Positions 4,266-20,688 of a stretch of 22,786 nucleotides of DNA are shown here, piece by piece. The first letter of the stretch is position 1, and each line of letters starts with the position of its first letter. Source of the DNA: a virus (taxonomy: Duplodnaviria; Heunggongvirae; Uroviricota; Caudoviricetes); IMG/VR virus record IMGVR_UViG_2547132281_000007, positions 1 to 22,786 of that record, one strand, 5' to 3'. The notes under the pieces were generated by a model that was not told the origin of the DNA, searched no databases, and worked only from the letters and a program-made list of their open reading frames with translations. A program made the position numbers and the translations under genes.

Positions 4266-4741
4266 GACAGCAGCCCTCCCACCGTTTTACTGATATCGCT
4301 TAAGGCAGACGTTGTCGTATCCTGCAAATTATTCAGCTGCGCACTGAGATCACCGAACATATCGGACAGGGATTCATCCACCCGTTTGAGCGACAGGGTG
4401 AACTCAATCCGGCGCGGCATACCATCGCGGAAAAACTCCGTTTTAGTCTGATTCAGTCCCTCAATCACATACATGCCGTAAATCGTGCCGCTGCCTTCAA
4501 TCAGGGGCCATGCTTTCCCCTGTTCTGCCATCTGCTCCAGTGCCAGCAACGACAGCCTGCCGCCTGTTATTTCCGGCATAAGAACACCGGAAAGCGTCAG
4601 CATGTCGTTTTCCGGTCCCAGAAACTGCGTGGACGGACGTCGGTTTACCCGACTGTTTGCCGCATGTCGCCAGCTGCGTTGATACTGCAGTTCCTGATAC
4701 GGAACGGTGCGCAGCATAAACACGTACAATCCCAGCACCAT
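4262..4741 (-). CDS. P2 gpU-like tail protein
   Basis: 159-aa ORF MVLGLYVFMLRTVPYQELQ...; size and sequence recalled as matching P2 gpU, with translational coupling to D. Confidence 0.88.
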   Translation of the reverse strand: MVLGLYVFMLRTVPYQELQYQRSWRHAANSRVNRRPSTQFLGPENDMLTLSGVLMPEITGGRLSLLALEQMAEQGKAWPLIEGSGTIYGMYVIEGLNQTKTEFFRDGMPRRIEFTLSLKRVDESLSDMFGDLSAQLNNLQDTTTSALSDISKTVGGLLS

Positions 4742-4782
4742 CAGCCTGGAAAAGAAATCCGAGTTCTAATCGCTGGAGAAAA

Positions 4783-5040
4783 TTGCCTGATGGAACCATC
4801 ATTCAAATGGGAATATCAGCATCAGGGCCATTAGGCTCACCTGTAAATATCACCCTGCCGATATCTTTCAGCAATACCAATTATTGTGTTGTTGCATCGT
4901 ACGATAATGCACGGTCAGGTGTGTCAACAATGGTTAGTTTTGCAGCGTTACCTGTTTCACCATCGCAATTTTCCCTGATGTCATCTGTGACTGAGCAAGG
5001 AATAAATCCTTTTGCTTACTGGATTGCTTTTGGAGATTAA
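4783..5040 (+). pseudogene. orphan tail-fibre C-terminal cassette (alternative variable domain, 5'-truncated)
   Basis: Open frame from 4720 (TTG start annotated at 4783), on the opposite strand to the tail genes and immediately followed by a tail-fibre-assembly gene. It has no N-terminal shaft domain and no upstream crossover site; the product resembles distal tips of phage side tail fibres. Confidence 0.5.
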
Positions 5041-5043
5041 TAA

Positions 5044-5463
5044 ATGGATAGATACTTCTATTCACAAAAAGAAAATGGTTTTTTTACCGATTTAAATAAA
5101 GCACCTTCAGATGCTGTTGAGATAACCACGGATGAATGGCTGTTACTACTGGATGGTCAGGATAATGGCATGAAAATAGTCAGCAATCAGGAGGGATATC
5201 CGGTTTTGACAGAGCAACCACCTTTATCAAAAGAAAACCTTATTGCATTGGCGGATTTGAAAAAAAGAAAACTTATTAATGAAGCCAACGAGCACATGAA
5301 CAGCAGACAATGGCCAGGTAAAGCGGCTATTGGTCGTCTGAAAAGTGAGGAACTGGCGCAATATAATTTATGGCTGGATTATCTGGACGCACTGGAACTG
5401 GTTGATACCTCCAGTGCGCCAGATATTGAATGGCTTACGCCTCCGGCAGTTCAGGCCAGATGA
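5044..5463 (+). CDS. tail fibre assembly protein (alternative cassette, Tfa/U' type)
   Basis: 139-aa ORF with the C-terminal motif LVDTSSAPDIEWLTPPA typical of Tfa chaperones; sits 3 bp after the orphan fibre tip and converges on and overlaps G. Confidence 0.7.
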   Translation: MDRYFYSQKENGFFTDLNKAPSDAVEITTDEWLLLLDGQDNGMKIVSNQEGYPVLTEQPPLSKENLIALADLKKRKLINEANEHMNSRQWPGKAAIGRLKSEELAQYNLWLDYLDALELVDTSSAPDIEWLTPPAVQAR

Positions 5464-6040
5464 CATCCGGCGCGGTGCTGGTATCTGTTGCAGTCACCGC
5501 GTCAATGTAATCCAGCACGGCGTTAAGTCGGGTTGTTTCTGTCTGCGTCAGTTTACGTGCGGCCTGCAATTTCAGCTGAATCAGACTGATGGAAGCCATT
5601 GCAGCATCAATCAGTGACTGACGCTGTGCTTCTGCCGCGTCTACTGCGGCGCTATGCTGTGCCTCAGTATCGGTCACCCATTTCTCACCATCCCATTTAT
5701 CGTATGGCGTTAATGGGGCGATAGTGGTTGTATTTTCAGGGTAATCACCCGGAACTGTGATTTCTTTGGTATCTCCCGTTTCGGTACTATAGACAACTTC
5801 ACCGCGATGGTCTGGCACATATTCCCATGAGTTTAAATCTGCCGAACGACAGATTGCATAACCAGCTTTATGTGTACCTGGTGCATCCAGACAGGAACAT
5901 GCCGGGATACCGACGCCGACAGCGAGATATTCAGTTGATGTAGAAATATATTCCCGCGTTTCACCATCATAATTATAAACGGTAATATCTCCCGCTTTTA
6001 TGGCAATGAGTTCGCTATTTAATACAGCTTTATTCATCAT
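5435..6040 (-). CDS. tail fibre assembly protein (P2 gpG-like)
   Basis: 201-aa ORF with the Tfa C-terminal motif DTSTAPDVIWPELPEA; immediately downstream of H with a 4-bp overlap. Confidence 0.85.
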   Translation of the reverse strand: MMNKAVLNSELIAIKAGDITVYNYDGETREYISTSTEYLAVGVGIPACSCLDAPGTHKAGYAICRSADLNSWEYVPDHRGEVVYSTETGDTKEITVPGDYPENTTTIAPLTPYDKWDGEKWVTDTEAQHSAAVDAAEAQRQSLIDAAMASISLIQLKLQAARKLTQTETTRLNAVLDYIDAVTATDTSTAPDVIWPELPEA

Positions 6041-7593
6041 GCGGCCCTCACAATATAATTAAAAGCGATGTTACGAGGACGAGTTTCTGTACCTACATTT
6101 TCACTAATTTCACCATAACGTTTAACACTACGAGAGCTAAGAGCTCGTAGTGAGGAAGGCACCTTAAGACCGGGTTCGTCCGTTTTAACTATTCCCCCGT
6201 CACCGTATGTAGCCAGTATTCCTGGGTTTACGCCTTCCCGTGCACTTCCTGCGGCGAGTCCGTCCCCTGTCCATAATTCCATATAGTGTGCATGGTCCAA
6301 AATTGTGTGTGGCTGCCAATTAAGCAAAGCGCGACCAGTATCAATCCCGCGACCGTCATCCCAGCCACGAATAAATTCACCGCGTAAATCAGGCAATTTA
6401 TTGGTCGGGTAAGCCTTTGCCAGTTCCGGGTATTCTTCAGCAGAAAAAGCCGCACCATTGCATTTCAGCCAGCCTGTCGGCGGAGTGGCTGAAGGCCACG
6501 GAACAGGCACCCCAACCGGTAATGCAGAGCCTTCTCCCAAACCAAGGTATGTGAGAAGACCAGCTACATCCTTTCCACTCAAATTGGTAAGCGTATTGTC
6601 CAGCGGTTGTTTACCTGCCAGCGCATTAAGCATTGTCGTGGCAAAGTTCGGATCATTCCCCAGTGCCGCCGCCAGTTCGTTCAGTGTATCCAGTGCCGCA
6701 GGTGCAGAACCCACCATTCCTGCAATCGCCGATTTCACAAATGCCGTGGTGGCAATTTGTGTATTGTTGACCGACTGTGCCGCAGTAGGTGCGGTTGGCG
6801 TTCCGGTGAGTGCCGGACTCGACAGCGGCGCTTTCAGTGCCAGCGCATTGTTAATGGTGGTACTGAATTTCGGATCATTGTTAATGGCTGCGGCTATTTC
6901 TTTCAGCGTGTCCAGCGTGGCTGGCGCACCATTAATAAGAGCCGTCAGAGCCGCCTGAACAAACTCGGTGGTCGCAATCTGCGTGGTGTTATTCCCTGCT
7001 GCTGGCGTTGGCGCTTTGGGTGTCCCGGTAAACGTCGGACTTTCTTTGGGTGCATACTGTGAATGCGGGTCCGGTGCGGCAAGATGTTTTGCCATCTGAT
7101 CATCCGCGTACACCTTCAGCTCCAGTGCCTTGTCATCCACATACTTGCGGGTTGCCAGCACTACAGCAGGGTCGATTTTCAGGGTGATATTGTCCGTGCT
7201 GCTGGTAATCAGCACCATGCGCACGGTCTGAGTGCGCCCGCTACCTTCAGCCAGTTGCGGCTTATAGCTTTCCGGGCAGTTGCCCACGGCAATCAATGCC
7301 CCGGACTCATCAAACAAGCCCACTTCACGTATCCACCAACCGCCCTCGTTTTCAGGGATCACCTGTTCGGCAATAATCTGGCTGCTGTTCTGCGGGTCGA
7401 TATAAAGCATATTCAGCGCAGCCCGGCGTTTCTCATTTACCAGTGCCGTCTGCTTTGCGTCCGGCGTTGGCAATACTCCACCGCCATCGCCCACCGCCAT
7501 ATGGGTAATTTTTAGCGGCACACCGAGCGCGGCGGCGCTGGCAAGTTTCGCCGCGCCAATATCCGTCAGCAGGGTATAAAATTTTGTGCTCAT
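6037..7593 (-). CDS. tail fibre protein (P2 gpH-like)
   Basis: 518-aa ORF with a conserved P2 H-like N-terminus (MSTKFYTLLTDIGAAKLA...), internal tandem repeats (NTTQIATTEFV / NNTQIATTAFV) and a divergent C-terminal receptor-binding region. Confidence 0.9.
   Translation of the reverse strand: MSTKFYTLLTDIGAAKLASAAALGVPLKITHMAVGDGGGVLPTPDAKQTALVNEKRRAALNMLYIDPQNSSQIIAEQVIPENEGGWWIREVGLFDESGALIAVGNCPESYKPQLAEGSGRTQTVRMVLITSSTDNITLKIDPAVVLATRKYVDDKALELKVYADDQMAKHLAAPDPHSQYAPKESPTFTGTPKAPTPAAGNNTTQIATTEFVQAALTALINGAPATLDTLKEIAAAINNDPKFSTTINNALALKAPLSSPALTGTPTAPTAAQSVNNTQIATTAFVKSAIAGMVGSAPAALDTLNELAAALGNDPNFATTMLNALAGKQPLDNTLTNLSGKDVAGLLTYLGLGEGSALPVGVPVPWPSATPPTGWLKCNGAAFSAEEYPELAKAYPTNKLPDLRGEFIRGWDDGRGIDTGRALLNWQPHTILDHAHYMELWTGDGLAAGSAREGVNPGILATYGDGGIVKTDEPGLKVPSSLRALSSRSVKRYGEISENVGTETRPRNIAFNYIVRAA
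6532..6557. other. candidate Hin/Gin/Cin-family invertase crossover site inside the tail fibre gene
   Basis: 26-bp imperfect palindrome TTCTCCCAAACC-AA-GGTATGTGAGAA (12-2-12, AA core), matching recalled hixL TTCTTGAAAACCAAGGTTTTTGATAA at 20 of 26 positions. It encodes ...TYLGLGEG... at the expected constant/variable junction of H. Confidence 0.5.
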
Positions 7594-8195
7594 GGATTCA
7601 CTCTCATTGTGTCAATAACATGGACCGCCCCGCCTTCATGCGCGGTGCCACCGGAAATAATCGTTTCGTTGATATACGGATAGATCGTGATTTCTTCGCC
7701 AAGATAGCTGGCGGCTCCCACCCAATGCGGGCCGCTGGTCTGCAGATTGATGGACATGCCGATCATGTGGCGGCTACATGGTTTGGCATCGCTTATCAGT
7801 CGCTCAAGTTCCAGATAGGTATCTTCAGTGATGCCCTGGTCCTGCACGCCGATATCCAGGCGAAACGTGCCCGGTGTTTCTCCGGTCTGCCACCACTCAA
7901 TAATGCGGATCAGGAATCCGAACGGCTCCACCACCCGCCGCACGGCACTGGTGGTCCCTTTATGCTGATGAATATAAAAAGCATCCTTCACCACCTGGCG
8001 CTTGACGCTTTCTGTCCAGCCCTCGTCCCAGCGATCCACAGAGAACGCCCAGGCGAGATAAGGCAGGAAACTGACCGGACAGGTTGCCGGATTCCACAAG
8101 TCACGAAGCGGCACCTGCAGATCAGAAATCCCGCTGCAGGTTTGCGCCAGTCGGCGCTCCAGTGGTGTTGAACCCGGTGGCAGCAGACTATTCAT
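7590..8195 (-). CDS. baseplate assembly protein (P2 gpI-like)
   Basis: 201-aa ORF with LPYLAWAFSVDRWDEGW and GTFRLDIGV motifs, recalled as matching P2 gpI; 4-bp overlap with H. Confidence 0.88.
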   Translation of the reverse strand: MNSLLPPGSTPLERRLAQTCSGISDLQVPLRDLWNPATCPVSFLPYLAWAFSVDRWDEGWTESVKRQVVKDAFYIHQHKGTTSAVRRVVEPFGFLIRIIEWWQTGETPGTFRLDIGVQDQGITEDTYLELERLISDAKPCSRHMIGMSINLQTSGPHWVGAASYLGEEITIYPYINETIISGGTAHEGGAVHVIDTMRVNP

Positions 8196-9096
8196 CCGTT
8201 CCTCCGTTGGTTACGCTCCACTGCGTACATGATGCCGCCTGTGTTTTGTTCAGGACCACATCCGCCAGAGGAGAAGCCAGCTCCACACGCTGCACCCCCT
8301 CAACATGCAGGGCGGCAAAGATGGCGCTACGGCGAATATCCCGACCAAGACGCGTCTGACTGGCGATGTACTTCTGCAGGCTGGCTTTTGCCGCTGCCAT
8401 TACCGGCTCTGCTTCCGGTCCAGGATAGAGAAAAATGGTGGCTTCCACGCGATACGGGATGATTTCTGCGCTGCGAACCGTAAGACGGTCAGCCACCGGG
8501 CGGACGTTCTCACTGTTCAGAGCTTTTTCCACCACGTCCAGCAGGTCTTTTTCTGCAGTTCCATCGCCTTCGCGGCTAAGGACAGTCAGCACCACCTCTG
8601 CAGGTGCCGGGCTGGTTGCACTGGCATCCGCCACCCGACCGTCGGCGCTTCGGGCATGAAATTCATAAGCTGCAGTTGGCCCCGCAACAGAAAGCCCTTC
8701 AAAGGCTGCAGGCACACGCAGGCGCAACGCTTCATCGCTTTCCATCACAGCTGCAACGGGCGGCACAGCATCATTATCAGCAGGCGTCACCGTCAGGCGT
8801 GTCACGTTGTAGTTGGCAGCGAGCTGGTCAAGATCGCCGCCCATCGCGTAAGCCACCATCACCGCCTGCGCGGCTTCGTTAATGCGCTGGCGCAGAAGCA
8901 ACTCACGGTAAGCGTTCTCCTGCAACAATTTAGTGGCGGGTTCAGATTCCAGTTCCAGCGTGCGGATCACTGCTTCCTGCTCATCTTTCGGATGAAGCGC
9001 CACAAATTCTGCCTTGCGTTCGGCAAGCAGCGTCTCAAAGTCCGGCACATCCACAATCTGCGGTGCAGGCAACTGCGAAAGGTCAATCACTGCCAT
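8188..9096 (-). CDS. baseplate assembly protein (P2 gpJ-like)
   Basis: 302 aa from the ATG at 9096 (MAVIDLSQLPAPQIV...), preceded by a GGAG RBS; aligns in recall with P2 gpJ (MPIIDLNQLPAP...). The longer ORF to 9135 has no support. Confidence 0.88.
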   Translation of the reverse strand: MAVIDLSQLPAPQIVDVPDFETLLAERKAEFVALHPKDEQEAVIRTLELESEPATKLLQENAYRELLLRQRINEAAQAVMVAYAMGGDLDQLAANYNVTRLTVTPADNDAVPPVAAVMESDEALRLRVPAAFEGLSVAGPTAAYEFHARSADGRVADASATSPAPAEVVLTVLSREGDGTAEKDLLDVVEKALNSENVRPVADRLTVRSAEIIPYRVEATIFLYPGPEAEPVMAAAKASLQKYIASQTRLGRDIRRSAIFAALHVEGVQRVELASPLADVVLNKTQAASCTQWSVTNGGTDE

Positions 9097-9442
9097 TCTC
9101 TGCTCCTGTTGATACGGAAAGGGACACAGGCACACCGTTATTCCGCCGCCCGGTCAGCTCCACCACCATAGAACCGTCAAAGTTGCTGTTGATGGTGATG
9201 GAATCCAGCGTCAGCCGTGGCTCCCAGCGACTCAGCGCCACATACACTGCCGACATGACCTGCAGGCGTAATGCCGGATTTTGTGGCTGATCTATTAAAA
9301 CCGACAGGAGGGAACCATATTCCCGGCGGGCAATGCGGCTACCCTGCGGTGTCAGCAGAATGTCCCGCACCGACTGGCGCAGATGATCAATATCAGTAAT
9401 GACTTTGCCGCTGGTATTGTTCATCCCGCTATAAAGCGTCAT
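9083..9442 (-). CDS. baseplate protein (P2 gpW-like)
   Basis: 119-aa ORF MTLYSGMNNTSGKVITDIDHL...GSRIARREYGSLL, recalled as matching P2 gpW; the 3' end overlaps the J start. Confidence 0.88.
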   Translation of the reverse strand: MTLYSGMNNTSGKVITDIDHLRQSVRDILLTPQGSRIARREYGSLLSVLIDQPQNPALRLQVMSAVYVALSRWEPRLTLDSITINSNFDGSMVVELTGRRNNGVPVSLSVSTGAENGSD

Positions 9443-9564
9443 ACCGGGCCTCCGGTTGTATCGCCGCCTTTCAGGACGCCAGTATGCTGATGCGCATCAA
9501 CAACAATCCCGTTAGAGCTCATCGCTCCGCCGCCCTGGGTATCCGTTCTGGTCCGGTGCGCTGT
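9439..9564 (-). pseudogene. remnant 3' end of spike gene V (about 40 codons)
   Basis: Short open frame ending ...GGGAMSSNGIVVDAHQHTGVLKGGDTTGGPV* whose TGA overlaps the W ATG (ATGA), as V/W do in P2. It carries an HxH-type motif and is truncated by an in-frame stop at 9565-9567, with no N-terminal part present. Confidence 0.4.
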
Positions 9565-9593
9565 TCAACCGTGGGCGCAACAAAGCCGATAAG

Positions 9594-10436
9594 GTGGACA
9601 TCGACCTGTCCCACAACAATCTGGCCCCCGGCCTGCTGTGCGCAGACGGGCAATACCGCCAGATAGTCACCGTGGAAGATGCGGTGCGCGGCGGCTGTAA
9701 CCTGTTCGACCTCGACCAGTTGCGCATGGAGTACAGCCCGGACGAATACCAGAACCTGCTGATGTGTGAGTTCGTGGACGATCTCGCGTCCGTGTTCCCG
9801 CTCAGCGAGCTGCAGGCGTGCATGGTGGACAGCTGGGAAGTCTGGACCGACTTTCATGCACTGGCCCTGCGCCCGTTTGGCTGGCGCGAGGTGTGGATCG
9901 GTTATGACCCGGCAAAAGGTACGCAGAACGGCGACAGTGCCGGATGCGTTGTGGTGGCTCCGCCAGCCGTGCCGGGCGGTAAGTTCCGCATTCTTGAGCG
10001 TCACCAGTGGCGCGGGATGGACTTCCGCGCCCAGGCGGACGCCATCAAAAAACTGACCGAACAGTACAACGTGACCTATATCGGCATCGACTCGACCGGC
10101 GTCGGTCACGGGGTTTATGAGAACGTGAAAGCGTTCTTTCCTGCCGTCCGGGAGTTTGTCTACAACCCCAACGTTAAAAACGCGCTGGTACTCAAGGCCT
10201 ACGACATTATCAGCCACCGCCGTCTGGAGTTTGACGCCGGGCACACCGACATTGCGCAGTCATTCATGGCAATCCGTCGCGCAACCACCGCCAGTGGCAA
10301 CCGCCCAACCTATGAAGCCAGCCGCAGCGAAGAAGCCAGCCACGCCGATCTGGCCTGGGCAACAATGCACGCACTGTTTAACGAACCACTGCAGGGCGAG
10401 TCCGCCAATACCAGTAATATTGTGGAGATTTTTTGA
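9594..10436 (+). pseudogene. terminase large subunit (P2 gpP-like), C-terminal fragment only
   Basis: 280-aa ORF with a GTG start; motifs ...VWIGYDPAKG...DSAGCVVVAPP...KFRILERHQWRGMDF...YIGIDSTGVG...SHADLAWATMHA match the nuclease half of P2 terminase. The reading frame opens only at 9516, so the N-terminal ATPase half (about 300 aa) is absent. Confidence 0.75.
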
Positions 10437-11464
10437 TGGGAAAGAGTAAGAAGAACCGCGCTGCGTCGACGAACCAGATCCAGCATAAAAGTCAAACTAC
10501 AGCCGAAGCATTCAGCTTCGGTGATCCCGTTCCTGTTCTGGACCGCCGCGAACTACTGGACTATGTGGAATGCGTACAGACAGATCGCTGGTATGAGCCG
10601 CCAGTAAGCTTTGACGGACTGGCGCGCACCTTCCGCGCCGCCGTGCATCACAGTTCACCAATTGCGGTGAAATGCAACATTCTGACCAGTACCTACATCC
10701 CCCACCCGCTGCTCAGCCAGCAGGCTTTTTCACGTTTTGTGCAGGACTATCTGGTATTTGGTAACGCCTACCTGGAGAAACGCACGAACCGCTTCGGTGA
10801 AGTTATCGCCCTTGAGCCTGCTCTGGCAAAATACACCCGACGCGGGTTAGACCTGGATACCTACTGGTTTGTGCAATACGGTATGACAACCCAGCCGTAT
10901 CAGTTCACGAAAGGCAGCATTTTTCATCTGATGGAACCGGACATTAACCAGGAGATCTACGGCCTGCCCGGTTATCTTTCTGCCATTCCGTCCGCCCTGC
11001 TCAATGAGTCCGCCACGCTGTTCCGACGCAAATATTACATCAACGGCAGCCATGCAGGCTTCATCATGTATATGACCGATGCCGCGCAGAATCAGGAGGA
11101 TGTGAACAATCTCCGCAACGCGATGAAAAGTGCCAAAGGTCCTGGTAACTTCCGCAACCTGTTTATGTACTCGCCTAATGGCAAAAAAGACGGGCTTCAG
11201 ATCATCCCGTTGTCAGAAGTCGCAGCGAAGGATGAATTTCTGAACATCAAGAACGTGAGCCGGGACGATATGATGGCGGCGCATCGTGTACCGCCACAGA
11301 TGATGGGGATTATGCCGAATAATGTTGGGGGATTTGGGGATGTGGAGAAGGCTAGTAAGGTATTTGTACGCAATGAGTTAAATTCACTCCAACAACGAAT
11401 TAGAGAGGTGAATAATTGGCTGAATGATAAAGTAATAAAATTCCAAGCCTATTCGTTATCATGA
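10433..11464 (+). CDS. portal protein (P2 gpQ-like)
   Basis: 343-aa ORF overlapping the P stop; FSFGDPVPVLDRRELLDYVEC and SATLFRRKYYINGSHAGFIMY motifs recalled as matching P2 Q. Confidence 0.9.
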   Translation: MMGKSKKNRAASTNQIQHKSQTTAEAFSFGDPVPVLDRRELLDYVECVQTDRWYEPPVSFDGLARTFRAAVHHSSPIAVKCNILTSTYIPHPLLSQQAFSRFVQDYLVFGNAYLEKRTNRFGEVIALEPALAKYTRRGLDLDTYWFVQYGMTTQPYQFTKGSIFHLMEPDINQEIYGLPGYLSAIPSALLNESATLFRRKYYINGSHAGFIMYMTDAAQNQEDVNNLRNAMKSAKGPGNFRNLFMYSPNGKKDGLQIIPLSEVAAKDEFLNIKNVSRDDMMAAHRVPPQMMGIMPNNVGGFGDVEKASKVFVRNELNSLQQRIREVNNWLNDKVIKFQAYSLS

Positions 11465-11484
11465 AAAACCGACATTTATAATAT

Positions 11485-11511
11485 TAAAGGGTGAAAACAA
11501 CGCACCCTTTA
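11485..11511. terminator. hairpin between convergent portal gene and cargo membrane gene (possible bidirectional terminator)
   Basis: 9-bp stem TAAAGGGTG / CACCCTTTA with a 9-nt loop, flanked by A/T-rich sequence on both sides. Confidence 0.4.
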
Positions 11512-11533
11512 ATATATGCCAATACAAAATTAA

Positions 11534-12718
11534 CTATTCCTTATTCAAATCAACCAACTTGTCCATAAGAGTTTCATTGTTATACCCCTCATGCATTTCA
11601 GTTCGTTTCCCTGAAAATTTTCTTTTATGAAACTCATTTATATCAACATTAAGATGTTCACAAATTTGCTCAAACTCATCTAGATAGAGAGGATCAACAT
11701 AATAATTATCTGAAATCAATTTTTTTTTGCGCATTTCTTCGTAAGTTGATTTCAGAGTGTAACGTACTGGGCATAATGCCTTTATTATTTCATGAATAAA
11801 CTCATCATTGTTGACCCCATAATTTCTTAGCTTTAAAAATAGCTTTTTTCGATCATCGGCAATTTTAAAGCAAGCATCCGCAAACTCTAACTTTTCAACA
11901 CCACCAGCAACATAAAAGTCTAATAAAGCCTTCCTTTGAAGGCTAATATCTTCCTCCGGTTTATAATCGTTAACTTTAACACTTCTAATAGATTTCTCTT
12001 TATTTTTTCTACGAGCTGAAATAATATCACTTGGGATGCTAAGAGACATTGCAAGCAATGCCATAAGAATCAAACAAAGAAAAGCATATACAAACACCCT
12101 TATTATTTGATACCACCATTTACTTGTTGTAAAAACCTCACTCCAAAAAGATTCAGTCTGAGAGTCGCCACTCATTTTGAGAATATCAAACCCTTTTACA
12201 CCAGCGACTTTACCAACCAACGATATAACTGGACTCGAATTCTCACTCCCCAAAACAAAAAAGCTCACCCGAAATTTTTCGTCAGGCTCTATGATTACCG
12301 GATTGAAAACCAAAGAATCATTACTAATCCTTGGCTTTATATTGTCCTTTAGATACACACTGTCTGTAATAATTGTAGGTTTCTCTACAACTTCACCTCC
12401 AGAAACTCTTAACGTTAGTAATGATGAATCATCAAAGTCACCTTTCCTTATAACAGCATTACCAGTATTTTTAATTGTTACATTTATTAGCCATAAGTTT
12501 TTTTTGGCTGTTCTGAGTTCTTCCCCATTATATGAAATAGATAATCCTCCGACAGCTTGATGAATATCAAGAACTTTTGTCGGCTGCATTAGTTCAATCG
12601 AAATATTCCCTTGTTTTTCATAATAGAAGCCAACATAAATCGCCACAACAAAACTAACTAAAGCTACTACAGCCATGAATCCAGCAGACTTTACAAATCC
12701 CCATATCGAACTGAGCAT
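11534..12718 (-). CDS. hypothetical 2-TM membrane protein (prophage cargo; candidate superinfection-exclusion or abortive-infection factor)
   Basis: 394-aa ORF in AT-rich DNA. N-terminal TM helix (FMAVVALVSFVVAIYVGFYY), a beta-rich central domain, a second TM (WWYQIIRVFVYAFLCLILMALLAMSL) followed by a positively charged stretch (RRKNKEKSIR), then a helical C-terminal domain. No family recognised. Confidence 0.6.
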   Translation of the reverse strand: MLSSIWGFVKSAGFMAVVALVSFVVAIYVGFYYEKQGNISIELMQPTKVLDIHQAVGGLSISYNGEELRTAKKNLWLINVTIKNTGNAVIRKGDFDDSSLLTLRVSGGEVVEKPTIITDSVYLKDNIKPRISNDSLVFNPVIIEPDEKFRVSFFVLGSENSSPVISLVGKVAGVKGFDILKMSGDSQTESFWSEVFTTSKWWYQIIRVFVYAFLCLILMALLAMSLSIPSDIISARRKNKEKSIRSVKVNDYKPEEDISLQRKALLDFYVAGGVEKLEFADACFKIADDRKKLFLKLRNYGVNNDEFIHEIIKALCPVRYTLKSTYEEMRKKKLISDNYYVDPLYLDEFEQICEHLNVDINEFHKRKFSGKRTEMHEGYNNETLMDKLVDLNKE

Positions 12719-12781
12719 TTTTCGAACTACCCCTTATCTTATCTCATGAGTTGTTTTAGGATATTACACTATTTGCGCGCG

Positions 12782-12800
12782 CTCGTATCCCCGCCACGCC
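12782..12800 (-). other. candidate cos site (cohesive-end sequence of P2/186 type)
   Basis: Minus strand reads GGCGTGGCGGGGATACGAG followed by CGCGCGC. Recalled P2 cos is GGCGAGGCGGGGAAAGCAC and 186 cos GGCGTGGCGGGGAAAGCAT, about 14-15 of 19 matches. The block is GC-rich between two AT-rich genes. Confidence 0.5.
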
Positions 12801-12845
12801 TGCCCGCTTTGTGTAGTGGTTTTCATGCAGGTGCCTGATCCACGC

Positions 12846-12869
12846 AAAAGCCCGCCAGTTCTGGCGGGC
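12846..12869 (-). terminator. putative Rho-independent terminator downstream of the DUF2971-like gene
   Basis: + strand AAAA then gcccgcc-agttct-ggcgggc; on the minus strand this is a GC stem-loop followed by UUUU. Confidence 0.45.
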
Positions 12870-12935
12870 CTTAGCAAAAACGATCCTCAAACGGTCATGC
12901 AAATTCAGGCAGCATAGGCATGCACTGTTGTTAGG

Positions 12936-14054
12936 TTAGTTCGTAATGCCAATTTCCTTCAAAACTTTAGCCATTTCCGTCTGACTTAACTTGTTCCTGA
13001 ACAAAGTGAAATTTTTCATTTTTTCCGCTCGTTGCCCTTTTGAAATAGTAATCTTTCCTGATGCTGATAACTCAGAGTCAAAAAAATAACATATTGTTGA
13101 ATTTGAATTCTCCATATTTGACTTGATACAATTCCATATGCTTTCTTTTTTCATTTCACACATTCTAGGACCAAAAATGATCCCTTTAACAACATTAGCA
13201 TCATGATGAAAAATATGTCCAATATTTCGATTTACGCGTCTTTGAACATGCCGCTCACTCCCTATTCCTGCATTTGCCTCCGGAATAAACATTCGATATT
13301 CAGCTTCATATCTCCAAAATCTATTTTTAGTTAAAAATAACTCTGCAACATTTGCGCTTGGGTCTAGAAGTGAAACCTCTTTAGCCTGATTACTATATTT
13401 TATTGGCTTAACTGGAAAATTAAATTTATCTGATGAAAATAAATTTTCTCTTAGCTTCATTCCAGTATAGGGTATACCATCAATATTAAAATCCTGCGTT
13501 TCATAAATCACAACACAACCACTAAAGCCAGCAGCATAATGCGCCCACATCATACGATCTAACGCATTAGCTGAAAATGACACACTGAATACTGCAGGAA
13601 CTATTTTCCTATACAACCTTTCTTTGATACTGTTCTCGCAAAGTGAAACCAAATATTGGCGTGGTTCAGGAATATTTCCATAAATAGCAGAATTAATCAC
13701 ATTGATAGGAAGTAAACCATCATCTATGATCTTACGTATCTCATCAACGTGTGAGTCAAACAGGCTATCTAATGACTCAATGCTACTTTTTATTTTTTTT
13801 CCTCTAAAAATACGATTCAATCCCTTATGTATTTTCAAATTACTCAAATCCAATATGTGACTCAAATTTTTATAGGATTTATCGCAAGGAGAACGCAATA
13901 AAATATCCCATAATTTCAATTTATTATCGAAGCGATAATCTATATTGAGATCATTGGGATCATTCAATTGCGCAGGAGCGGAAAAATATAATTCATTATA
14001 ACGAATAGCTTTCTCGAAGAAGAAGTCCGGACGGTAATACTTGAAAAGATACAT
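12936..14054 (-). CDS. DUF2971-like hypothetical protein (prophage cargo at the P2 old/tin position; candidate anti-phage effector)
   Basis: 372-aa ORF in AT-rich DNA with an AGGT RBS. N-terminus MYLFKYYRPD...FSAPAQLNDPND and internal MMWAHYAAGFSGCVVIYE resemble my recollection of the DUF2971 signature (LYKY..., FNDPxE, MWshYa). Positioned between the replication/tum module and cos. Confidence 0.65.
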   Translation of the reverse strand: MYLFKYYRPDFFFEKAIRYNELYFSAPAQLNDPNDLNIDYRFDNKLKLWDILLRSPCDKSYKNLSHILDLSNLKIHKGLNRIFRGKKIKSSIESLDSLFDSHVDEIRKIIDDGLLPINVINSAIYGNIPEPRQYLVSLCENSIKERLYRKIVPAVFSVSFSANALDRMMWAHYAAGFSGCVVIYETQDFNIDGIPYTGMKLRENLFSSDKFNFPVKPIKYSNQAKEVSLLDPSANVAELFLTKNRFWRYEAEYRMFIPEANAGIGSERHVQRRVNRNIGHIFHHDANVVKGIIFGPRMCEMKKESIWNCIKSNMENSNSTICYFFDSELSASGKITISKGQRAEKMKNFTLFRNKLSQTEMAKVLKEIGITN

Positions 14055-14438
14055 GACATTACCTATAACATTGCAATATTAATAACCGTATGAAAACAGT
14101 TTGATTGTATTGATAATATCCTATTCTGCATATACCACAGTGTAAAGATTAATTTTAAATACCATATCCAACAGTAAATCATGTATCGACCGCCAGATAA
14201 GAAGCTTTTGAAAAACTTGGACGATAATTAATCAAAAGCTCTTCCCATCCTGTATCCTCTATCTCACTCTTTTGGACATTGAAAGAAGCCCCTCTGATCG
14301 GGAATGATTGTTTCCAGCGTTTGACCACGATATACAATATGATATTTGATGTCTTTTGATCAGATGGCTAACGCCTCGCATAGCTCGTTGTTCAACCTTG
14401 CTGACGCCAGAAGCAAGTTCAGACGCCAGCAACGTTTC

Positions 14439-14672
14439 TTAATGCAGCCAGCTGTCGTCTTCCCACACCTTCTGCATAATTTTCATCACTTGTTTCCTTT
14501 CTTCGTCCAGTTGCAGTCCGGTCAGTTCCACACCGTTAGAGCTACCTTTACGGATACGAATTACCGTTTTGGGATACAGGGGGCGCAGATTGCGGTAAAG
14601 CTCTGATTCAAGGGCGTCTAGGGTAGACTGGCTAATCTTCTGCTCTTTATCGATCATTATTTCAATGCGCAT
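14439..14672 (-). CDS. DinI-family protein
   Basis: 77 aa from the ATG at 14672, with a GAGGGG RBS 6 nt upstream. MRIEIMIDK...LDALESEL...VWEDDSWLH aligns in recall with E. coli DinI (MRIEVTIAK...AIDALAGEL...ETWESADDWF). The annotated ORF extension to 14744 has no support. Confidence 0.75.
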   Translation of the reverse strand: MRIEIMIDKEQKISQSTLDALESELYRNLRPLYPKTVIRIRKGSSNGVELTGLQLDEERKQVMKIMQKVWEDDSWLH

Positions 14673-14682
14673 AAAAGTCCCC

Positions 14683-14871
14683 TCAGCTGATGACATCCAT
14701 TGAGCGGTTGTATTCGTGGCTTCTGATTTTTGCCATGAGTTCATCTGTCAGTTCAGAAACCCACTGCAGGGCCAGCCCCTTCTCTTCATCACTACACTCA
14801 CTAGCCGCTACAAGCTTAAGAAAAAAATCAATGCGTTGGAGCTTCAAAGACTCCAAAAAATAGTCCTGCAT
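14683..14871 (-). CDS. small hypothetical protein in the SOS-controlled tum-like operon (possible antirepressor N-terminal module)
   Basis: 62 aa from the ATG at 14871, preceded by a perfect AGGAGG RBS with 4-nt spacing and lying directly downstream of the LexA box. The ORF extension to 14973 lacks an RBS. The gene sits where phage 186 carries tum. Confidence 0.5.
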   Translation of the reverse strand: MQDYFLESLKLQRIDFFLKLVAASECSDEEKGLALQWVSELTDELMAKIRSHEYNRSMDVIS

Positions 14872-14912
14872 CTTTCCTCCTATGACACCACAAGCAATAC
14901 TGTATACATAAC

Positions 14913-14932
14913 CACTGTTTATATTTACAGTA
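14913..14932 (-). promoter_or_regulatory. LexA box (SOS operator) upstream of the tum/DinI-like operon
   Basis: Minus strand TACTGTAAATATAAACAGTG is CTG-N10-CAG, matching consensus TACTGTATATATATACAGTA at 17 of 20 positions. It lies about 40 bp upstream of the AGGAGG RBS and is flanked by promoter-like hexamers (TTTACA ... TATACT). Confidence 0.6.
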
Positions 14933-15024
14933 TATAATAATCTTACTGATGTAAAACGTTTTTTTACGTTCATCAGCCTGATATGCCTGGTATTATTAAG
15001 AGCACGAATTGTTAATCCGCGTAA

Positions 15025-17439
15025 TTAATACAGGTTCCGCCACTTATCATCTTCCTGCAAACGCTGGTTCCGATAGAAAATACGCAGGCCTGCTCCTGAC
15101 GGAATGCTGCCGCCGCGAAGGAGTAAATCGACCTCTTTCTCGCTGCCATCAAATCTTCTGGACTTCAGTTCATAGACGAGCTGCTGTCGTTGATGGTCTG
15201 TAATTCGCTGTTTGTAGTCTCTACGCCGTTTCGGTTTCACCAGGCGTAACCTTGCAGCCAGTTCCCGGCGTTCTTTTTTGTTCATACTGTGCAGGTAATC
15301 GTGCAACTCCTTGTCATCCATACGGGTGATATCCGTTCTGGTATCCCCATCAGCTGATTTGTCTTTCCCTTGTTGGTACAAATTTTCAGCAAGGGGACAG
15401 TTATTGCCACGAGTCCAAGGGGCGCAAGCGCCCTGGTCGGCTGCCGCCTCCTGAACGTCAACGGCCTTACGAACCATTTTCCACTTCACTGCATGAGTGC
15501 AGATCTTGCCCTCTGCAATGGGTGACCAGATGCCATAAATACGAATACCGTGATCGCCATAGGCGGTCGGCTCTTCGTTAATTTCATAAGCAGTTCTGAT
15601 GAGGTGATATTTACGGGGAACCAGTACACCTCCCTGCTTCATGATATAGGTGGCAAAACAACCAGCATCAGCAGCAGCCAGAATGGCATCAAGGCGCGGG
15701 TTATCCAGTACCGGCACACCTGCTTTTTTGTCACCCTGCTGCCTTGCCGCCTGACCAGCCAGCAATCGCAGTTCACGGTAAGCCTGACGCCCCGGAATAC
15801 CAAAGAAGCGGAATTGCTGAACACGATGCAAAGACGCCCAGGCATTCACGTATTCAGCGTTATCACGAAGAGATTTACCCGTTTCCTTGCTGATCTCGCC
15901 AGCCAGACCACGCCCGTCAATGTTCTTACTGATGTATTTCGCTATGTAGCTTGTCGGCGTTCCTTTGCGCGGGTTAATCAGCTCAGACTTAAAGCGCGGC
16001 CCCGTGTTATTGCCCAGCTCCTCGCGGTCTTCACGGATAGCAAACTTACGCAACAATGCAGTAATGGCGCGGCGGTCTTTTTTGCGCATGAAACACAACA
16101 GGTGCCAGTGAACTGTGCCGTCGTGATGCGGCTCAGCCACCCGCACGCCATACCAGCGCAACCCGGCTTTGTGCATCGCCTTACGAAATGCAGCAAACAT
16201 ACCGACCAGATAATCGCTGCTTTGTCTTACCGTCGCGTTTTTCCAGGTCGGGTTGGGTCTGCCGTTATTTAGCGTGGAATGGAAACGTGACGGACAGGTA
16301 ATGGTGTAGAAAACGGCGCAGTCACCGCGCATTTCCGCGATAAGCTCCAGACCTTTAACACAGGCCATCATCTCATTGCGGCGATGCGCCGGGTTGCTGC
16401 AGCTGGCGTTTACCACATCTTCCATATCCAGCGCGTCTCCGTCTTCGTTCACCAGTTCATGAGAACGGAAAAACTCCAGCGACTTACGGCGCTGCTCACG
16501 TTTATGCATCACAGCTTCATAGCTGACATAGGGAGATGCTTTTTTGCTGACCAGGCAGACAGCACGCAACTGCTCTTCCCGCCATTCGCAACGCATCTTC
16601 CACAATTTCCGATACCACCAGTCGGCGCACAGCATACGCGCCAGCGAGCCCGGAATGAGTTCATAGGGCACTGGTTTACGGCGGTTTCTTTTCCGACGGA
16701 GTTGCTCAAACGCAGGCGGGATGACATCCAAACGTAGGGTTTCCGCTGCCACCCTTTCCCATGTCTTGCGGATTTCTTCTGGCTTAACATCATCGGTGGC
16801 GTACAAATCACCACAAGCGGCATCAAGACACATGCTCATATGCGCAGCGACAAGGGTAGACAGGCGTTTCACCTGATCCTGACTCATTTCAGGCAGGATC
16901 AGCAGGCCGTCCAGCCCTTCATGGCTTGCCATAAAGCGAAAAGAAGTGGATAGCTGACTGTCGCGTACATGCTCCAGTCGTTCCAGACATGGCTTAATCG
17001 TCTCACGCAGATAGCGAGAATAAGCCTTTGGCCTGCCCAGGCTGCTGAAATATTCGATACGTTGCATCAGCGGCTTGCTGATGTGGGAAGGCTGGGCGCT
17101 GACGTCCGCCAGAATGACCATGTCCGGGTTAAAACGCTGCTGTTCATGCGCCAGCTTTGCCCGACTAATGAGCTTATCCTGCTCCATTTCACGCTGGACA
17201 GGATCACGGGATTCATTAAAGAAATAACGCTCCCAGACCTGCTCACTCAGTGCATCGCGGCGCAGCTGTTCCTGCTCATTATCGGCAGCGTACAGAGTGA
17301 TCAGGTTTGAAAGTGCAGACTCCAGCGCAACTTCCGCCGGGTCCAGATACGGGTTAATGGCCTTTTTCGGGCCGTTCCATGAAAATGCTACAGCGGCCTC
17401 GTTAAAGCCGCTAGAGTTGCTCATATCGTCATGACTCAT
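15025..17439 (-). CDS. replication initiation endonuclease (P2 gpA-like, rolling-circle)
   Basis: 804-aa ORF of the size and family expected for P2 gpA (recalled as about 760 aa), directly downstream of dam with an ATGA overlap. Confidence 0.88.
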
Positions 17440-18293
17440 ACACGCACCTCGTACACAGCAGAACTATCCACGCCACACGAAGGATCAAATCCCACCCAGC
17501 AGCGCGCCCCGGAAACAGCAATGATTTCTGTTGCAGATTTACTCTCGCCAGCCGACACGCCGATGCTGCGTTTTGCCTTGATGTAGTGGTGAGTGAAATT
17601 TCGATACAGCGAACGGATCAGGGATGTGTCACTGTTAGAAACAATGACTGGATGACCTTCTGATGATCGATATTCAAGAACAGATGCCAGGTGATACTGG
17701 TCATCTTCAGTGAAACCATCAGTGTGATAGCCGGAAAACGTACCGTCATAAGGCGGATCGCAATACACCACATCCCCCACCTGCAGCATCGCCAGCGTTT
17801 CATCAAAGCTGGCGCAGATAAACGTTGCTCGCTGGGCTTTCTCTGCAAATGCGCGAATTTCTTTTTCAGGGAAATACGGATTTTTATAATTACCGTATGG
17901 AATGTTGAAATGCCCGCTCTTGTTATAACGACATAACCCACGGTAACCATGACGATTGAGATACAGAAAATATACCGCTTTCATGAAATCAGTAATTTCA
18001 GTGGAGTAATTAAACTCCTGCCTTATGTTGTAATAAGCCACCTCTCTGTTTGCTTCCTCAAATAAAGCTCTGGCACGAGATATAAACGCCTCACAATCAG
18101 CAGCAACCTTTTTATAGAGGTTGATTAAATCAGGATTAATATCCGCAACAAGATAGCTGGGGTAATCCGTCTCCATCATCACTGCACAGGAACCCGCGAA
18201 AGGTTCAACCAGTCGCGGACCAGCAGGAAGATGTTTTTTCAGTTCGGACATAATGGCGGTTTTATTTCCCGCCCATTTCAGGATGGTGCTCAT
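17436..18293 (-). CDS. DNA adenine methyltransferase (Dam-like)
   Basis: 285 aa from [11 protein letters not shown]; carries the DPPY catalytic motif (VYCDPPYDG) and FAGSCAV SAM-binding region. The upstream extension to 18353 is unlikely because it overlaps the TraR-like gene. Confidence 0.85.
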
Positions 18294-18517
18294 ACAGCAC
18301 CTCCGTTGTAATGTTTGCCTTTCAGCTCTGCGATTTCCTGACAGGTAATGCAAAGTTGCACACCCGGAATGGCACGGCGGCGTGCTGGCGGAATTGGCGC
18401 TTCACACTCAATGCAAAGCACGCGGGACACGCCCGGCGTTTTGGCACGGGCAGCACGGATATGGCGCTGGCGTTCTTCTTCAACGCGCTGCTGTACGAGA
18501 TCCATTGCATCAGCCAT
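18290..18517 (-). CDS. TraR/DksA-family C4 zinc-finger protein
   Basis: 75-aa ORF with CIECEAPIP...CITCQ (CxxC...CxxC), typical of small TraR-like proteins of P2-like phages and conjugative plasmids. Confidence 0.7.
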   Translation of the reverse strand: MADAMDLVQQRVEEERQRHIRAARAKTPGVSRVLCIECEAPIPPARRRAIPGVQLCITCQEIAELKGKHYNGGAV

Positions 18518-18756
18518 TAGTGGATCTCCTGCGCTTCGTTCTGGATTGCTTCAGCAGTTACACGCAATAGTTCTGCTGCTTCGACGTGGTTTAGCTGGCG
18601 GGATGTGATATGACACGCCAGGCTATCAAGGCGAGCTGCCATTGCTTCAGCCCTTGCCCGGCGTTCTTCCAGACGAGTCTCTGTCAGTAAAATATTAAGC
18701 CCAGCATCATCCGGTCCGGTTTTAGTCGTGAGGGTTTCAATATTACGCATAATCAA
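18517..18756 (-). CDS. hypothetical phage early protein
   Basis: 79-aa ORF in operon context, its start overlapping the upstream gene arrangement; no recognisable motif. Confidence 0.45.
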   Translation of the reverse strand: MIMRNIETLTTKTGPDDAGLNILLTETRLEERRARAEAMAARLDSLACHITSRQLNHVEAAELLRVTAEAIQNEAQEIH

Positions 18757-18817
18757 TTCTCCTGAATTTAGATAAAGGGATACCCGGCGGGTTTACGCCA
18801 TTAATTTCATTAGTTGG

Positions 18818-19159
18818 TTAATTCGGCATGGTTAGCCGTCTGGGAAATAAGCTCACCACTGCACGAAAATGATTCATTGCTTTAATCAACTCCCGCTTTT
18901 CGTCAGTGGTCAGCTCATTAATGCTGATGCTATGACGTTCAGCTGGAATTTTTGCCATAAAGAATATAGCAGCCAGTGCCCGTTTATTTTGTTCGTTATT
19001 GATATCCCGTGGATCACGCATATCTTTAATAAACCGCTCAAGCTCTGACTCAATATTCAGGCCAAATACTTTCGCCCTTAACTCCGCAATGTGATTAAGT
19101 CCATTCAGGCGTTCACCGGGGCTTAATGGAACAGTCGCCGCAGCGCTTTCAATAGCCAT
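18818..19159 (-). CDS. hypothetical phage early protein
   Basis: 113-aa ORF on the early-operon strand with a GGGGA-type RBS; no recognisable motif. Confidence 0.4.
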   Translation of the reverse strand: MAIESAAATVPLSPGERLNGLNHIAELRAKVFGLNIESELERFIKDMRDPRDINNEQNKRALAAIFFMAKIPAERHSISINELTTDEKRELIKAMNHFRAVVSLFPRRLTMPN

Positions 19160-19241
19160 TTATGCATCCCCACAACACATCTACTAAAAAATTTTTGATA
19201 TGATCCATTACCAACATATTGATAGCTAGAAGGAATCATCA

Positions 19242-19490
19242 ATGTTGAACCCGGTTGAAAGAGAGCGTATAGAGCAACTTGAAAACGAGATCTCCAGTCT
19301 TCGCGATGAGGTTGCTGTTCAACGAATTCTTGTTTCAGGTCTGATCCACTCCTTATTTCGAACTGACTCAGCAAATCAATCAGCATTTTTTGAGCTCCTC
19401 CGCGAAGAATTAAACAAACTTCCTTTAGGTTCGGTTAAACAACAAGAATTCACTCATCTGATACAGACACTGATAGATCGTTACCGATAA
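19242..19490 (+). CDS. hypothetical small coiled-coil protein (opposite strand inside early region)
   Basis: 82-aa ORF with an AGGAA RBS 8 nt upstream of the ATG and heptad-like sequence (ERERIEQLENEISSLRDEVAVQRIL). The overlapping minus-strand ORF 19123..19386 is low-complexity and less protein-like. Confidence 0.4.
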   Translation: MLNPVERERIEQLENEISSLRDEVAVQRILVSGLIHSLFRTDSANQSAFFELLREELNKLPLGSVKQQEFTHLIQTLIDRYR

Positions 19491-19705
19491 ATATTTCGCC
19501 GATAACGTTCAAGAGGTGATGTCTTTATACGCATCACTTCTTGTACTTTTTCACCACGTATAAAGGTTCCATCCTTTAGCGTGAAAAAGTAGCTACCATC
19601 GCCCGACAACGACGGATAGCAACTGAGCAAATCATCTTCAGGTACTGAATAATTCTCCCCTCTGTAACGAAAGTGATAAACCACTTCATTTTCTGCCGCA
19701 TACAT
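19481..19705 (-). CDS. hypothetical protein
   Basis: 74-aa ORF (MYAAENEVVYHFRYRGENYSVPEDD...) overlapping the 3' part of ORF 19576..19872 in another frame; only one of the two is likely to be real over the shared region. Confidence 0.3.
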   Translation of the reverse strand: MYAAENEVVYHFRYRGENYSVPEDDLLSCYPSLSGDGSYFFTLKDGTFIRGEKVQEVMRIKTSPLERYRRNIYR

Positions 19706-19872
19706 TTGGACTTTCTCCGTTTCCTCGTGGTCAATTCAGACAGCAATTCATCTTGTGAACGGCACGGATGCCAGCGTTTACCATCCTCACCCATGATCCA
19801 GCCGTGACCGTAGTGCATTGCCGGGCTTTGTTTTACCAGCAGCGATGCAAATGATGGTTCTTTCGTCAGCAT
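19576..19872 (-). CDS. hypothetical early protein downstream of cII (186 fil/dhr position)
   Basis: Internal ATG at 19872 just downstream of the cII stop (MLTKEPSFASLLVK...). The C-terminal third looks low-complexity, so a frameshift or the overlapping ORF may be the true reading. Confidence 0.3.
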   Translation of the reverse strand: MLTKEPSFASLLVKQSPAMHYGHGWIMGEDGKRWHPCRSQDELLSELTTRKRRKSKCMRQKMKWFITFVTEGRIIQYLKMICSVAIRRCRAMVATFSR

Positions 19873-19879
19873 AAGCACC

Positions 19880-20395: not shown

Positions 20396-20421
20396 TGCCT
20401 CTGATGTATTTCAGAATCGAA

Positions 20422-20643
20422 CTAACTAAGGTTTAGATTGCATTCTGAAAGCGCATCAACGGTCATGGCTGCTATGTTGATCATCACTTTTTCGCGTTTT
20501 TTATCTTTGCGCAAACGGTGACGGATAAGGCGTCCGTCAGCCAACATGTCATTGATGGTATCGATGGACAGCCCTGTCAGCTCGCTATAGCGCTCAATAG
20601 TCACATGAGGCGTGGTAAGAGTGATTGAAATGTTAGGTCTCAT
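20422..20643 (-). CDS. Apl/Cox-like excisionase and transcriptional regulator
   Basis: 73-aa basic ORF with an HTH-like segment, first gene of the early operon and divergent from the repressor, as apl in 186 or cox in P2. Confidence 0.65.
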
Positions 20644-20688
20644 GATGCAACATTCCTCGTTTAATGATGATTAATCAGGACGAATACG

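Follow-up and report, generated by a model that had tools for sequence, protein, structure and literature searches.

A large, unnamed family of predicted two-pass membrane proteins with members beside cos in P2/186-like prophages, a candidate for stand-alone anti-phage function

Small membrane proteins that bring about superinfection exclusion (Sie) are encoded by phages and prophages, T4 Imm, HK97 gp15, and lactococcal Sie2009 among them; we know of no Sie protein with a two-sided architecture, in which both a periplasmic and a cytoplasmic domain are present.

The cos-proximal region between gpA and gpQ is a defence hotspot of Escherichia coli that comprises 1650 arrangements, with old, tin, and many other genes of validated systems among its contents (Rousset et al., 2022, PMC9122126). 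Tests were made of old, of tin, and of eight more systems cloned from this hotspot, and a phenotype was obtained for only about a third of the cloned loci (PMC9122126); among 21 experimentally selected E. coli defence systems, four map to the gpA–gpQ position (Vassallo et al., 2022, PMC9519451). In a 2026 preprint, six of eight randomly chosen unknown loci of the P4 hotspot were protective, and 15–32% of the unknown proteins of the P2 hotspot were predicted to be antiviral.

The gene described here encodes a protein of 394 aa and belongs to a P2/186-like prophage inserted between ybjL and rcdA. The window, which is the whole stretch of 22,786 bp that was analysed, is identical to sequence of E. 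coli TW14425 (NZ_CP127265.1), where the prophage occupies the same site. The gene lies between gpA and the portal gene, adjacent to cos, and thus in the hotspot position; with the known cargo of the P2 gpA–cos–gpQ region (old, tin, and the systems of PMC9122126 and PMC9519451) it shares the slot, an AT-rich mosaic character, and replacement between similar prophages. Unlike that cargo, its product has no sequence or domain similarity to validated hotspot occupants, as judged by PADLOC. In the part of the P2-hotspot supplementary listing that was available, the RefSeq version of the protein, WP_126719504, appears in at least two entries ("hypothetical + DUF2971 + hypothetical + DinI"), where it is given as "hypothetical" and stands outside the cloned systems (PMC9122126); as far as that part of the listing goes, the insertion has therefore been catalogued but is uncharacterised. 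The supplements of the 2026 preprint do not mention the 394-aa protein. Cargo between cos and Q is not new, being part of a published hotspot in which WP_126719504 is already catalogued; the finding is a new, unnamed family in a known kind of locus. Its novelty is moderate; while no surprise, the gene is well suited to inexpensive experiments.

The gene, cos, and the flanking signals

The window prophage carries genes for an integrase, CI, CII, Fil, a Dam methylase, gpA (15025–17439, minus strand, from the ORF list and a domain scan), a DinI-like protein, a P2 Q-type portal protein (10433–11464, plus strand; Phage_portal match, 2e-16), baseplate and tail-fibre proteins, gpD, and ogr. The prophage is defective: it has no capsid, lysis, or tail-completion genes, and its large terminase, which has lost the N-terminal half, abuts a remnant of gpV, so that both are truncated. 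An intact version of the prophage, with identical cargo proteins, is found in E. coli LD22-1.

The ORF of the predicted two-pass inner-membrane protein runs from 11534 to 12718 on the minus strand, starts with ATG, and is convergent with the portal gene. It is confirmed as a genuine gene: the probability of 394 codons without a stop, computed with the gene's own base composition, is about 1e-15, and homologues of the same length occur at 33–99% identity. Its GC content (0.341) is lower than that of the portal gene (0.503), of gpA (0.528), and of the phage backbone in general (approximately 50%). The RefSeq protein WP_126719504.1 ("hypothetical protein") is the same sequence begun at Met15, giving 380 aa; the 394-aa start is preferable because residues 1–14 are conserved in 12 of 13 close homologues.

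The equivalent of the cos cohesive end is a 19-nt sequence at 12782–12800, GGCGTGGCGGGGATACGAG on the minus strand, which was placed by alignment and by comparison with the annotated cosL of P2, GGCGAGGCGGGGAAAGCAC. It includes the motif GGCGTGGCGGGG (window 12789–12800), lies in a conserved cos region of about 12770–12812 defined by alignment with three other P2-like loci, and is itself conserved in 14 loci; the cos motif adjoins a family gene in nine different P2-like prophages or contigs. In the window it lies 63 bp upstream of the ATG of the 394-aa gene, so this gene and a DUF2971 gene on the same strand at the far side of cos (12936–14054) flank the cohesive end. A preliminary description of the window had proposed both this flanking arrangement and the presence of an AT-rich 394-aa gene between cos and the 3′ end of Q, convergent with Q, and the ORF, its composition, and the mapping of cos agree with it. 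Its comparison with P2, as a phage with essentially nothing between cos and Q, was correct as well, because only 167 bp separate P2 cosL from the Q stop codon; the 394-aa gene thus occupies the portal side of cos, where P2 has only these 167 bp.

The 394-aa gene and the portal gene end facing each other, and the stretch between their stop codons holds a 13-bp hairpin (11481–11515; calculated folding energy −20.1 kcal/mol on one strand and −15.9 kcal/mol on the other, z about −5.2), which is probably a bidirectional terminator; the P2 terminator tQ occupies the equivalent place. A second hairpin, GC-rich and followed by a U-run on the minus strand (12843–12872; −27.9 kcal/mol, z −4.1), lies between the end of the DUF2971 gene and cos, where it is predicted to insulate the 394-aa gene from upstream transcription. 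With putative hairpin terminators upstream of cos and after its stop codon, the 394-aa gene is shown as a predicted transcription unit of its own. No sigma-70-like promoter was found by a sigma-70 scan of the 63 bp between cos and the ATG, and no Ogr-type TGT-N12-ACA site was found by eye.

The family, its genomic contexts, and its accessory status

Scans of the 394-aa protein against Pfam, NCBIfam, and PADLOC gave no match, and its sole profile match was phrog_29747 (E 1.1e-25; residues 17–253 against profile positions 20–256 of 364), which is without annotated function, so that membership gives no mechanism. Word-indexed homology searching returned only 13 clusters, and only one extra protein when a 26-sequence profile was used; an exhaustive phmmer scan of 1.84 billion representatives returned 1281 proteins at E ≤ 1e-3 and 913 at E ≤ 1e-10, the figure of 1281 being a count of clusters at 50% identity. 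Most of the 161 sequences retrieved are 350–410 aa long, and most family members align over query residues 1 to about 280; the named sources include Salmonella, Klebsiella, Citrobacter, Lelliottia, Stenotrophomonas, Variovorax, and Roseateles. Relatives were also found with a hand-made degenerate DNA pattern for D-x-H-x2-[VI]GGL-x-[VI]-x-Y-x-G, which located true relatives at three genome loci and seven metagenome loci; four other metagenome matches were false. By tblastn, no homologue was present in 50,697 isolated-phage records or in 72,556 plasmids.

A Pfam scan of 147 diverse members gave no significant domain, a PADLOC scan of 26 members gave no match, and comparison of the family profile with PDB sequences gave no single significant domain (overall E 0.02); the ion-channel S6 helices that appeared in the last search were rejected as compositional matches to the transmembrane (TM) and basic stretch only. 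The family is shown to be large and to be unnamed by Pfam, NCBIfam, or PADLOC v2.

In P2-like prophages the family gene recurs in one slot. Members at 74, 52, 46, 37, and 33–34% identity to the window protein lie 60–350 bp downstream of cos and converge with the portal gene in eight of nine P2-like prophages or contigs; in the ninth context, represented by two Lelliottia loci (33%), a pair consisting of a 145-aa gene and a DUF6575 gene stands between cos and the family gene, which still adjoins the portal gene. The closest of these relatives (73–74%) are on two IMG/VR viral contigs with full-length terminase, portal, and gpA genes and the order gpA, a 61-aa ORF, cos, the family gene, and the convergent portal gene, with no other large cargo; a Klebsiella locus (34%) has the same arrangement, and there too the family gene is the only large cargo. 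At a locus with a 46% identical member (L004), a 146-aa and DUF6575 pair lies on the gpA side of cos and the family gene follows cos, facing a decayed portal gene. Two metagenome loci (37%; L020 and L026) carry the gene downstream of cos and convergent with a portal gene that is itself only 58% identical. A prophage remnant at the same ybjL site (52%; L003) has cos just upstream of the family gene, and DUF3800 and HNH genes as neighbours. Outside the slot, a 28% identical member lies between gpD and a CI-type repressor gene in a P2-like element, and members at non-phage chromosomal sites adjoin DUF4365, DUF4357, a Cdc6-like ATPase with integrase and PIN genes, or a Tc-toxin-like gene. When all neighbours were compared with one another, only phage core genes recurred, together with the DUF6575 pair in two loci. 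From these contexts and this comparison, the family gene is therefore a stand-alone module.

This bears directly on the proposal, made in the preliminary description, that the 394-aa gene acts with the DUF2971-like gene. Such a two-gene system across cos would draw on the adjacency of the two genes in the window, on one strand and with a similarly AT-rich composition, on the match of the DUF2971 protein to the PADLOC defence candidate PDC-S31 (1e-23), and on the conservation of the pair in three of 5426 complete E. coli genomes. However, at least 22 E. coli genomes have the DUF2971 gene, 98–100% identical, but lack the 394-aa gene, so that the two do not consistently co-occur; none of the other family loci examined has a DUF2971 neighbour, no neighbour of any kind recurs in a way that would suggest a partner, and a strong predicted terminator as well as cos separates the two genes. 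A functional pairing is largely refuted and must be regarded as highly improbable.

The 394-aa gene is accessory. It is present in three of 5426 complete E. coli genomes, whereas the flanking portal and cos DNA was matched in 1249, and in E. coli strain 61 a DUF262 gene fills the slot between the portal gene and cos; the gene thus varies between related prophages and stands out by its composition (GC 0.34 against 0.50–0.53). A core role in the P2 virion or in packaging was ruled out, the gene being rare in E. coli P2-like prophages and absent from P2 and from the 50,697 phage records, and the earlier view of it as cargo is upheld. An optional role in the phage life cycle at the membrane (lysis timing, self-exclusion during lytic growth, or the anchoring of injected or replicating DNA near cos) would fit its position in eight of the nine P2-like contexts, where it is the leftmost gene of the virion chromosome, with no other gene between it and cos. 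This role is nevertheless improbable: the gene is missing from almost all P2-like prophages and from every isolated phage genome searched, the family also occupies non-phage chromosomal sites, and the gene survives intact where the prophage has lost the ability to make particles. The last point concerns three independently decayed prophages, namely that of the window, L003, and L004, and argues for selection in the host cell, not in the phage lytic cycle.

The alleles themselves are exchanged. Prophages whose backbones have diverged equally from the window (portal 87–89% identity, gpA 81–82%) nevertheless carry family proteins that are either 74% or 34% identical to the query, a pattern of allelic replacement that is typical of conflict genes.

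Predicted architecture and structural likeness

The 394-aa protein is predicted to be an N-in bitopic hairpin made up of TM1, a periplasmic Ig-like sandwich of about 150 aa, TM2, a basic patch, and a helical cytoplasmic domain of about 145 aa. Kyte–Doolittle hydropathy peaks at residues 12–32 and 204–228, the second peak being followed by RRKNKEK, and exactly two hydrophobic segments are found at the same positions in 123 of 153 family members. The family mean net charge is +1.6 before TM1, −0.7 after TM1, and +4.1 in the 20 aa after TM2; under the positive-inside rule, this pattern places the N terminus and the C terminus inside and the beta domain in the periplasm. An AlphaFold2 model (14-sequence alignment, mean pLDDT 73) has a helix at residues 2–34, a beta-sandwich at 37–181, a helix at 201–249, and a helical domain at 260–393. 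An inner-membrane location with a periplasm-exposed segment is thus predicted from the hydrophobic segments, the charge pattern in the 123 members, and the model, and hydropathy, charge, and structure prediction concur with the architecture first suggested for this protein: an N-terminal TM segment, a beta-rich periplasmic domain, a second TM segment with a positive patch, and a helical cytoplasmic domain.

All parts are encoded on the minus strand. TM1 (residues 12–32; 12623–12685) would serve as a signal-anchor. It is followed by the putative periplasmic Ig-like beta-sandwich (residues 35–185; 12164–12616), the most conserved part of the protein, in which N84, D96, Y122, G169, K170, G173, and D51 are nearly invariant and L59 and G86 are further conservation peaks. 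TM2 (residues 204–228; 12035–12109) leads to a basic juxtamembrane patch, RRKNKEKSIRS (residues 236–246; 11981–12013), on the predicted cytoplasmic side. Further conservation maxima lie where the TM helices meet the periplasm, at Y28 (94% of the family) in TM1 and at R207 (97%) and Y211 (93%) in TM2. The helical cytoplasmic C-terminal domain (residues 250–394; 11537–11971) is the fastest-evolving part, with few conserved positions (R245, Y269, and G273). Divergence is accordingly uneven, least in the beta-sandwich and greatest in the cytoplasmic domain and tail; between the window protein and that of L026, identity is 48% in the beta domain and 7% in the C-terminal domain.

The best matches of the model in a viral structure library (Foldseek) are small, uncharacterised phage proteins with one TM segment and a sandwich, DUF4352/DUF5067 proteins, and putative lipoproteins, led by A0A8S5R7S0 (168 aa; E 7e-9; TM-score 0.58 on the target). 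An N-terminal anchor and an Ig-like sandwich are common to the 394-aa protein and to these membrane-anchored BFVD entries, which are themselves uncharacterised; however, the BFVD and DUF4352/DUF5067-type proteins end after the sandwich, without TM2 or a cytoplasmic domain, and identity is 10–19%. Ig-like or jelly-roll domains of cohesin, CLIPPER, pilin, and adhesin proteins are 5–12% identical; theirs is a generic binding fold, common to many proteins that are unrelated, and would identify a "binding module" only.

In topology (TM1, periplasmic domain, TM2, N-in/C-in), the protein also resembles the Wzz/FepE polysaccharide co-polymerases (PCPs), genes for which occur in prophages. The PCP periplasmic domain, however, is a long alpha-helical hairpin on an alpha/beta base, whereas that of the 394-aa protein is predicted to be an all-beta sandwich, and the proline-rich motif of PCP TM2 is missing; a Wzz/PCP identity was rejected on this predicted fold and on the lack of a Wzz Pfam match in 147 members.

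The broader possibility is a lysogenic-conversion "moron" that would alter the envelope, signalling, or host fitness, for instance in polysaccharide handling, stress tolerance, or colonisation. The arrangement of two TM segments around a periplasmic domain, as in regulators of envelope assembly, is compatible with such a factor, and the invariant polar residues of the beta domain suggest a universal ligand or a metal site; family members are widespread at chromosomal sites outside phages, one of these being next to a Tc-toxin-like gene, and retention of the gene in decayed prophages shows a host benefit of unspecified kind. An envelope factor is nonetheless unlikely. Beyond the predicted sandwich, which is not the helical PCP fold, the 147 members have no Pfam match to Wzz or to any other envelope family, the gene is not linked to loci for polysaccharides or virulence, allelic replacement of the kind seen here is characteristic of genes in conflict, and elsewhere genes of a defence type, DUF262 among them, take the slot (also PMC9122126).

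Anti-phage function and its possible mechanisms

The reading that we prefer is that the 394-aa protein is a stand-alone anti-phage accessory membrane protein of P2/186-like temperate phages, to which we assign a probability of roughly 0.5, a figure that excludes any sub-mechanism and that was chosen because of the hotspot base rates and the conflict-type allelic turnover. The prophage would express the protein, and the lysogen would be protected from other phages at the inner membrane. The hotspot position, the accessory nature of the gene, its recurrence in the slot, its stand-alone status, its retention in decayed prophages, and its allelic turnover all support an anti-phage function, as does the proximity of chromosomal relatives to DUF4365, DUF4357, PIN, and integrase genes. 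The absence of any PADLOC match, of homologues in the isolated phages and plasmids searched, and of a sigma-70-like promoter in the scanned interval counts against it, and so do the low base rates of the hotspot (about a third of cloned loci; 15–32% predicted antiviral).

As to mechanism, an abortive sensor–effector is slightly favoured. The fast-evolving cytoplasmic domain would recognise a phage product, whereupon the conserved module of two TM segments and periplasmic domain, probably oligomeric, would compromise the membrane or envelope and abort the infection. The conservation of the beta domain and TM segments, set beside the variability of the cytoplasmic domain, matches what a conserved effector with a variable sensor might look like, and this gradient is like that of known single-protein defences that have variable sensors. 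A conserved periplasmic domain of 150 aa with invariant polar residues is, on the other hand, more than a simple pore-forming effector needs.

A block to genome entry appears nearly as likely as the abortive sensor–effector because the periplasmic domain is of a binding type. In this variant of anti-phage function, which amounts to superinfection exclusion and which taken by itself is unlikely, the Ig-like domain would bind the incoming tail tip, the tape-measure complex, or its inner-membrane channel, and DNA would be kept out without death of the cell. Exclusion of this sort had been suggested from the outset, and, like the phage-encoded membrane exclusion proteins (T4 Imm, P22 SieA, HK97 gp15, Sie2009, and lambda RexB), the 394-aa protein is prophage-borne, is predicted to reside in the inner membrane with few TM segments, and would act alone or nearly so. 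The prophage location of the 394-aa gene, the predicted inner-membrane anchoring of a periplasm-facing sandwich, which would be a plausible point of contact with an incoming phage, and the structural neighbours among small TM-plus-sandwich phage proteins, putative lipoproteins, and DUF4352/DUF5067 proteins are consistent with it. The 394-aa protein is, however, much larger than the exclusion proteins, its periplasmic part being a folded Ig-like domain and its cytoplasmic part a domain of 145 aa, and it has no homology to them; searches of Pfam (147 members) and PADLOC (26 members) gave no sequence relationship to Imm, SieB, RexB, or any other Sie or abortive-infection family represented there. 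Moreover, the periplasmic domain is the part most conserved across very different bacteria, whereas a surface in contact with a phage or a host receptor is expected to vary, and the sizeable, evolving cytoplasmic domain would be left without a role. That domain, at 145 aa, is more than known entry-blocking Sie proteins have. Neither the abortive nor the entry-block model fully explains both domains.

At the level of the family, a more far-reaching proposal is offered tentatively: its members may form a new and widespread class of single-protein transmembrane immune receptors, in which a conserved module of two TM segments and a periplasmic Ig-like domain would be coupled through the inner membrane with a fast-diversifying cytoplasmic specificity domain, and of which P2/186-like phages would keep exchangeable alleles in the slot between cos and portal, excluding competitors.

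If the function is not antiviral, the family would still be a sizeable, conserved family of membrane proteins with no Pfam model and with invariant periplasmic residues, deserving a name. If it is antiviral, it would add to the known repertoire a single-gene, membrane-spanning defence family that lies outside PADLOC v2, Pfam, and NCBIfam and, when clustered at 50% identity, numbers no fewer than 1281 clusters; the portal side of cos would be a recurrent, dedicated cargo slot, and the alleles found there would provide a natural series in a constant phage backbone, handy for the mapping of specificity by domain swaps.

State of the prophage and its accessory regions

The window prophage (about 2850-22700) is defective. 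Its large terminase lacks the N-terminal half and persists as a 280-aa C-terminal fragment (9594-10436) adjoining a gpV remnant (region 9440-10436), and deletions have removed the capsid, lysis and tail-completion genes. An intact version of this prophage resides in E. coli LD22-1, where the cargo proteins are identical to those encoded in the window.

In the segment 4783-6040, the plus strand carries a gp53-like fragment together with a gene for tail-fibre assembly, and these face minus-strand genes for tail-fibre assembly and the tail fibre; the segment has the look of an inverted cassette for an alternative host range, and no invertase was found near it. Downstream of gpA, the DinI-like gene (14439-14744, minus strand; shorter in its RefSeq version, at 77 aa) is the equivalent of the tum-type, SOS-linked function of phage 186.

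Putative transcription signals and an antisense frame

Two strong hairpins bracket the transcription unit of the 394-aa gene (11534-12718, minus strand): a GC-rich stem followed by a U-run on the minus strand (12843-12872), between the stop codon of the DUF2971 gene and cos, and a 13-bp stem (11481-11515) where the 394-aa gene and the portal gene converge, between their stop codons. The cohesive end is separated from the ATG of the 394-aa gene by only 63 bp (12719-12781), and no σ70-like promoter was detected within this interval; any promoter of the gene may lie across the cos junction, and thus be present only in circular or prophage DNA. An antisense ORF of 127 aa (12177-12560, plus strand) lies within the 394-aa gene, and the matching frame is also open, over 143 aa, in L009, a viral contig encoding a relative with 73-74% identity; the 127-aa ORF probably arises from the AT-rich codon bias and is not a true gene.

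Cargo exchange around cos

Across cos, the protein encoded by the DUF2971 gene (12936-14054, minus strand) has only a borderline Pfam score (21.7 bits; cutoff, 22 bits) but matches the PADLOC candidate PDC-S31 (1e-23). Since at least 22 E. coli genomes carry this gene without the 394-aa gene, it is an independent single-gene defence candidate.

In E. coli strain 61, whose prophage is otherwise near-identical to that of the window, a 579-aa DUF262 protein fills the cos-to-portal slot (L002 3191-4930), and the two sequences part no more than about 10 bp from the conserved core of cos. Related prophages carry cargo at hotspots other than this slot, namely a SNIPE/T5orf172 protein gene adjoining CI in Lelliottia (L031 1-816) and an AAA_15/OLD-like ATPase gene between the integrase and CI genes in Klebsiella (L030 1468-3462). 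Cargo modules evidently move across cos: a gene pair encoding a 145-aa protein and a DUF6575/DUF7226 protein is found on the gpA side in L004, a P2-like locus (1374-3103), and on the portal side in L031 (7225-8948).
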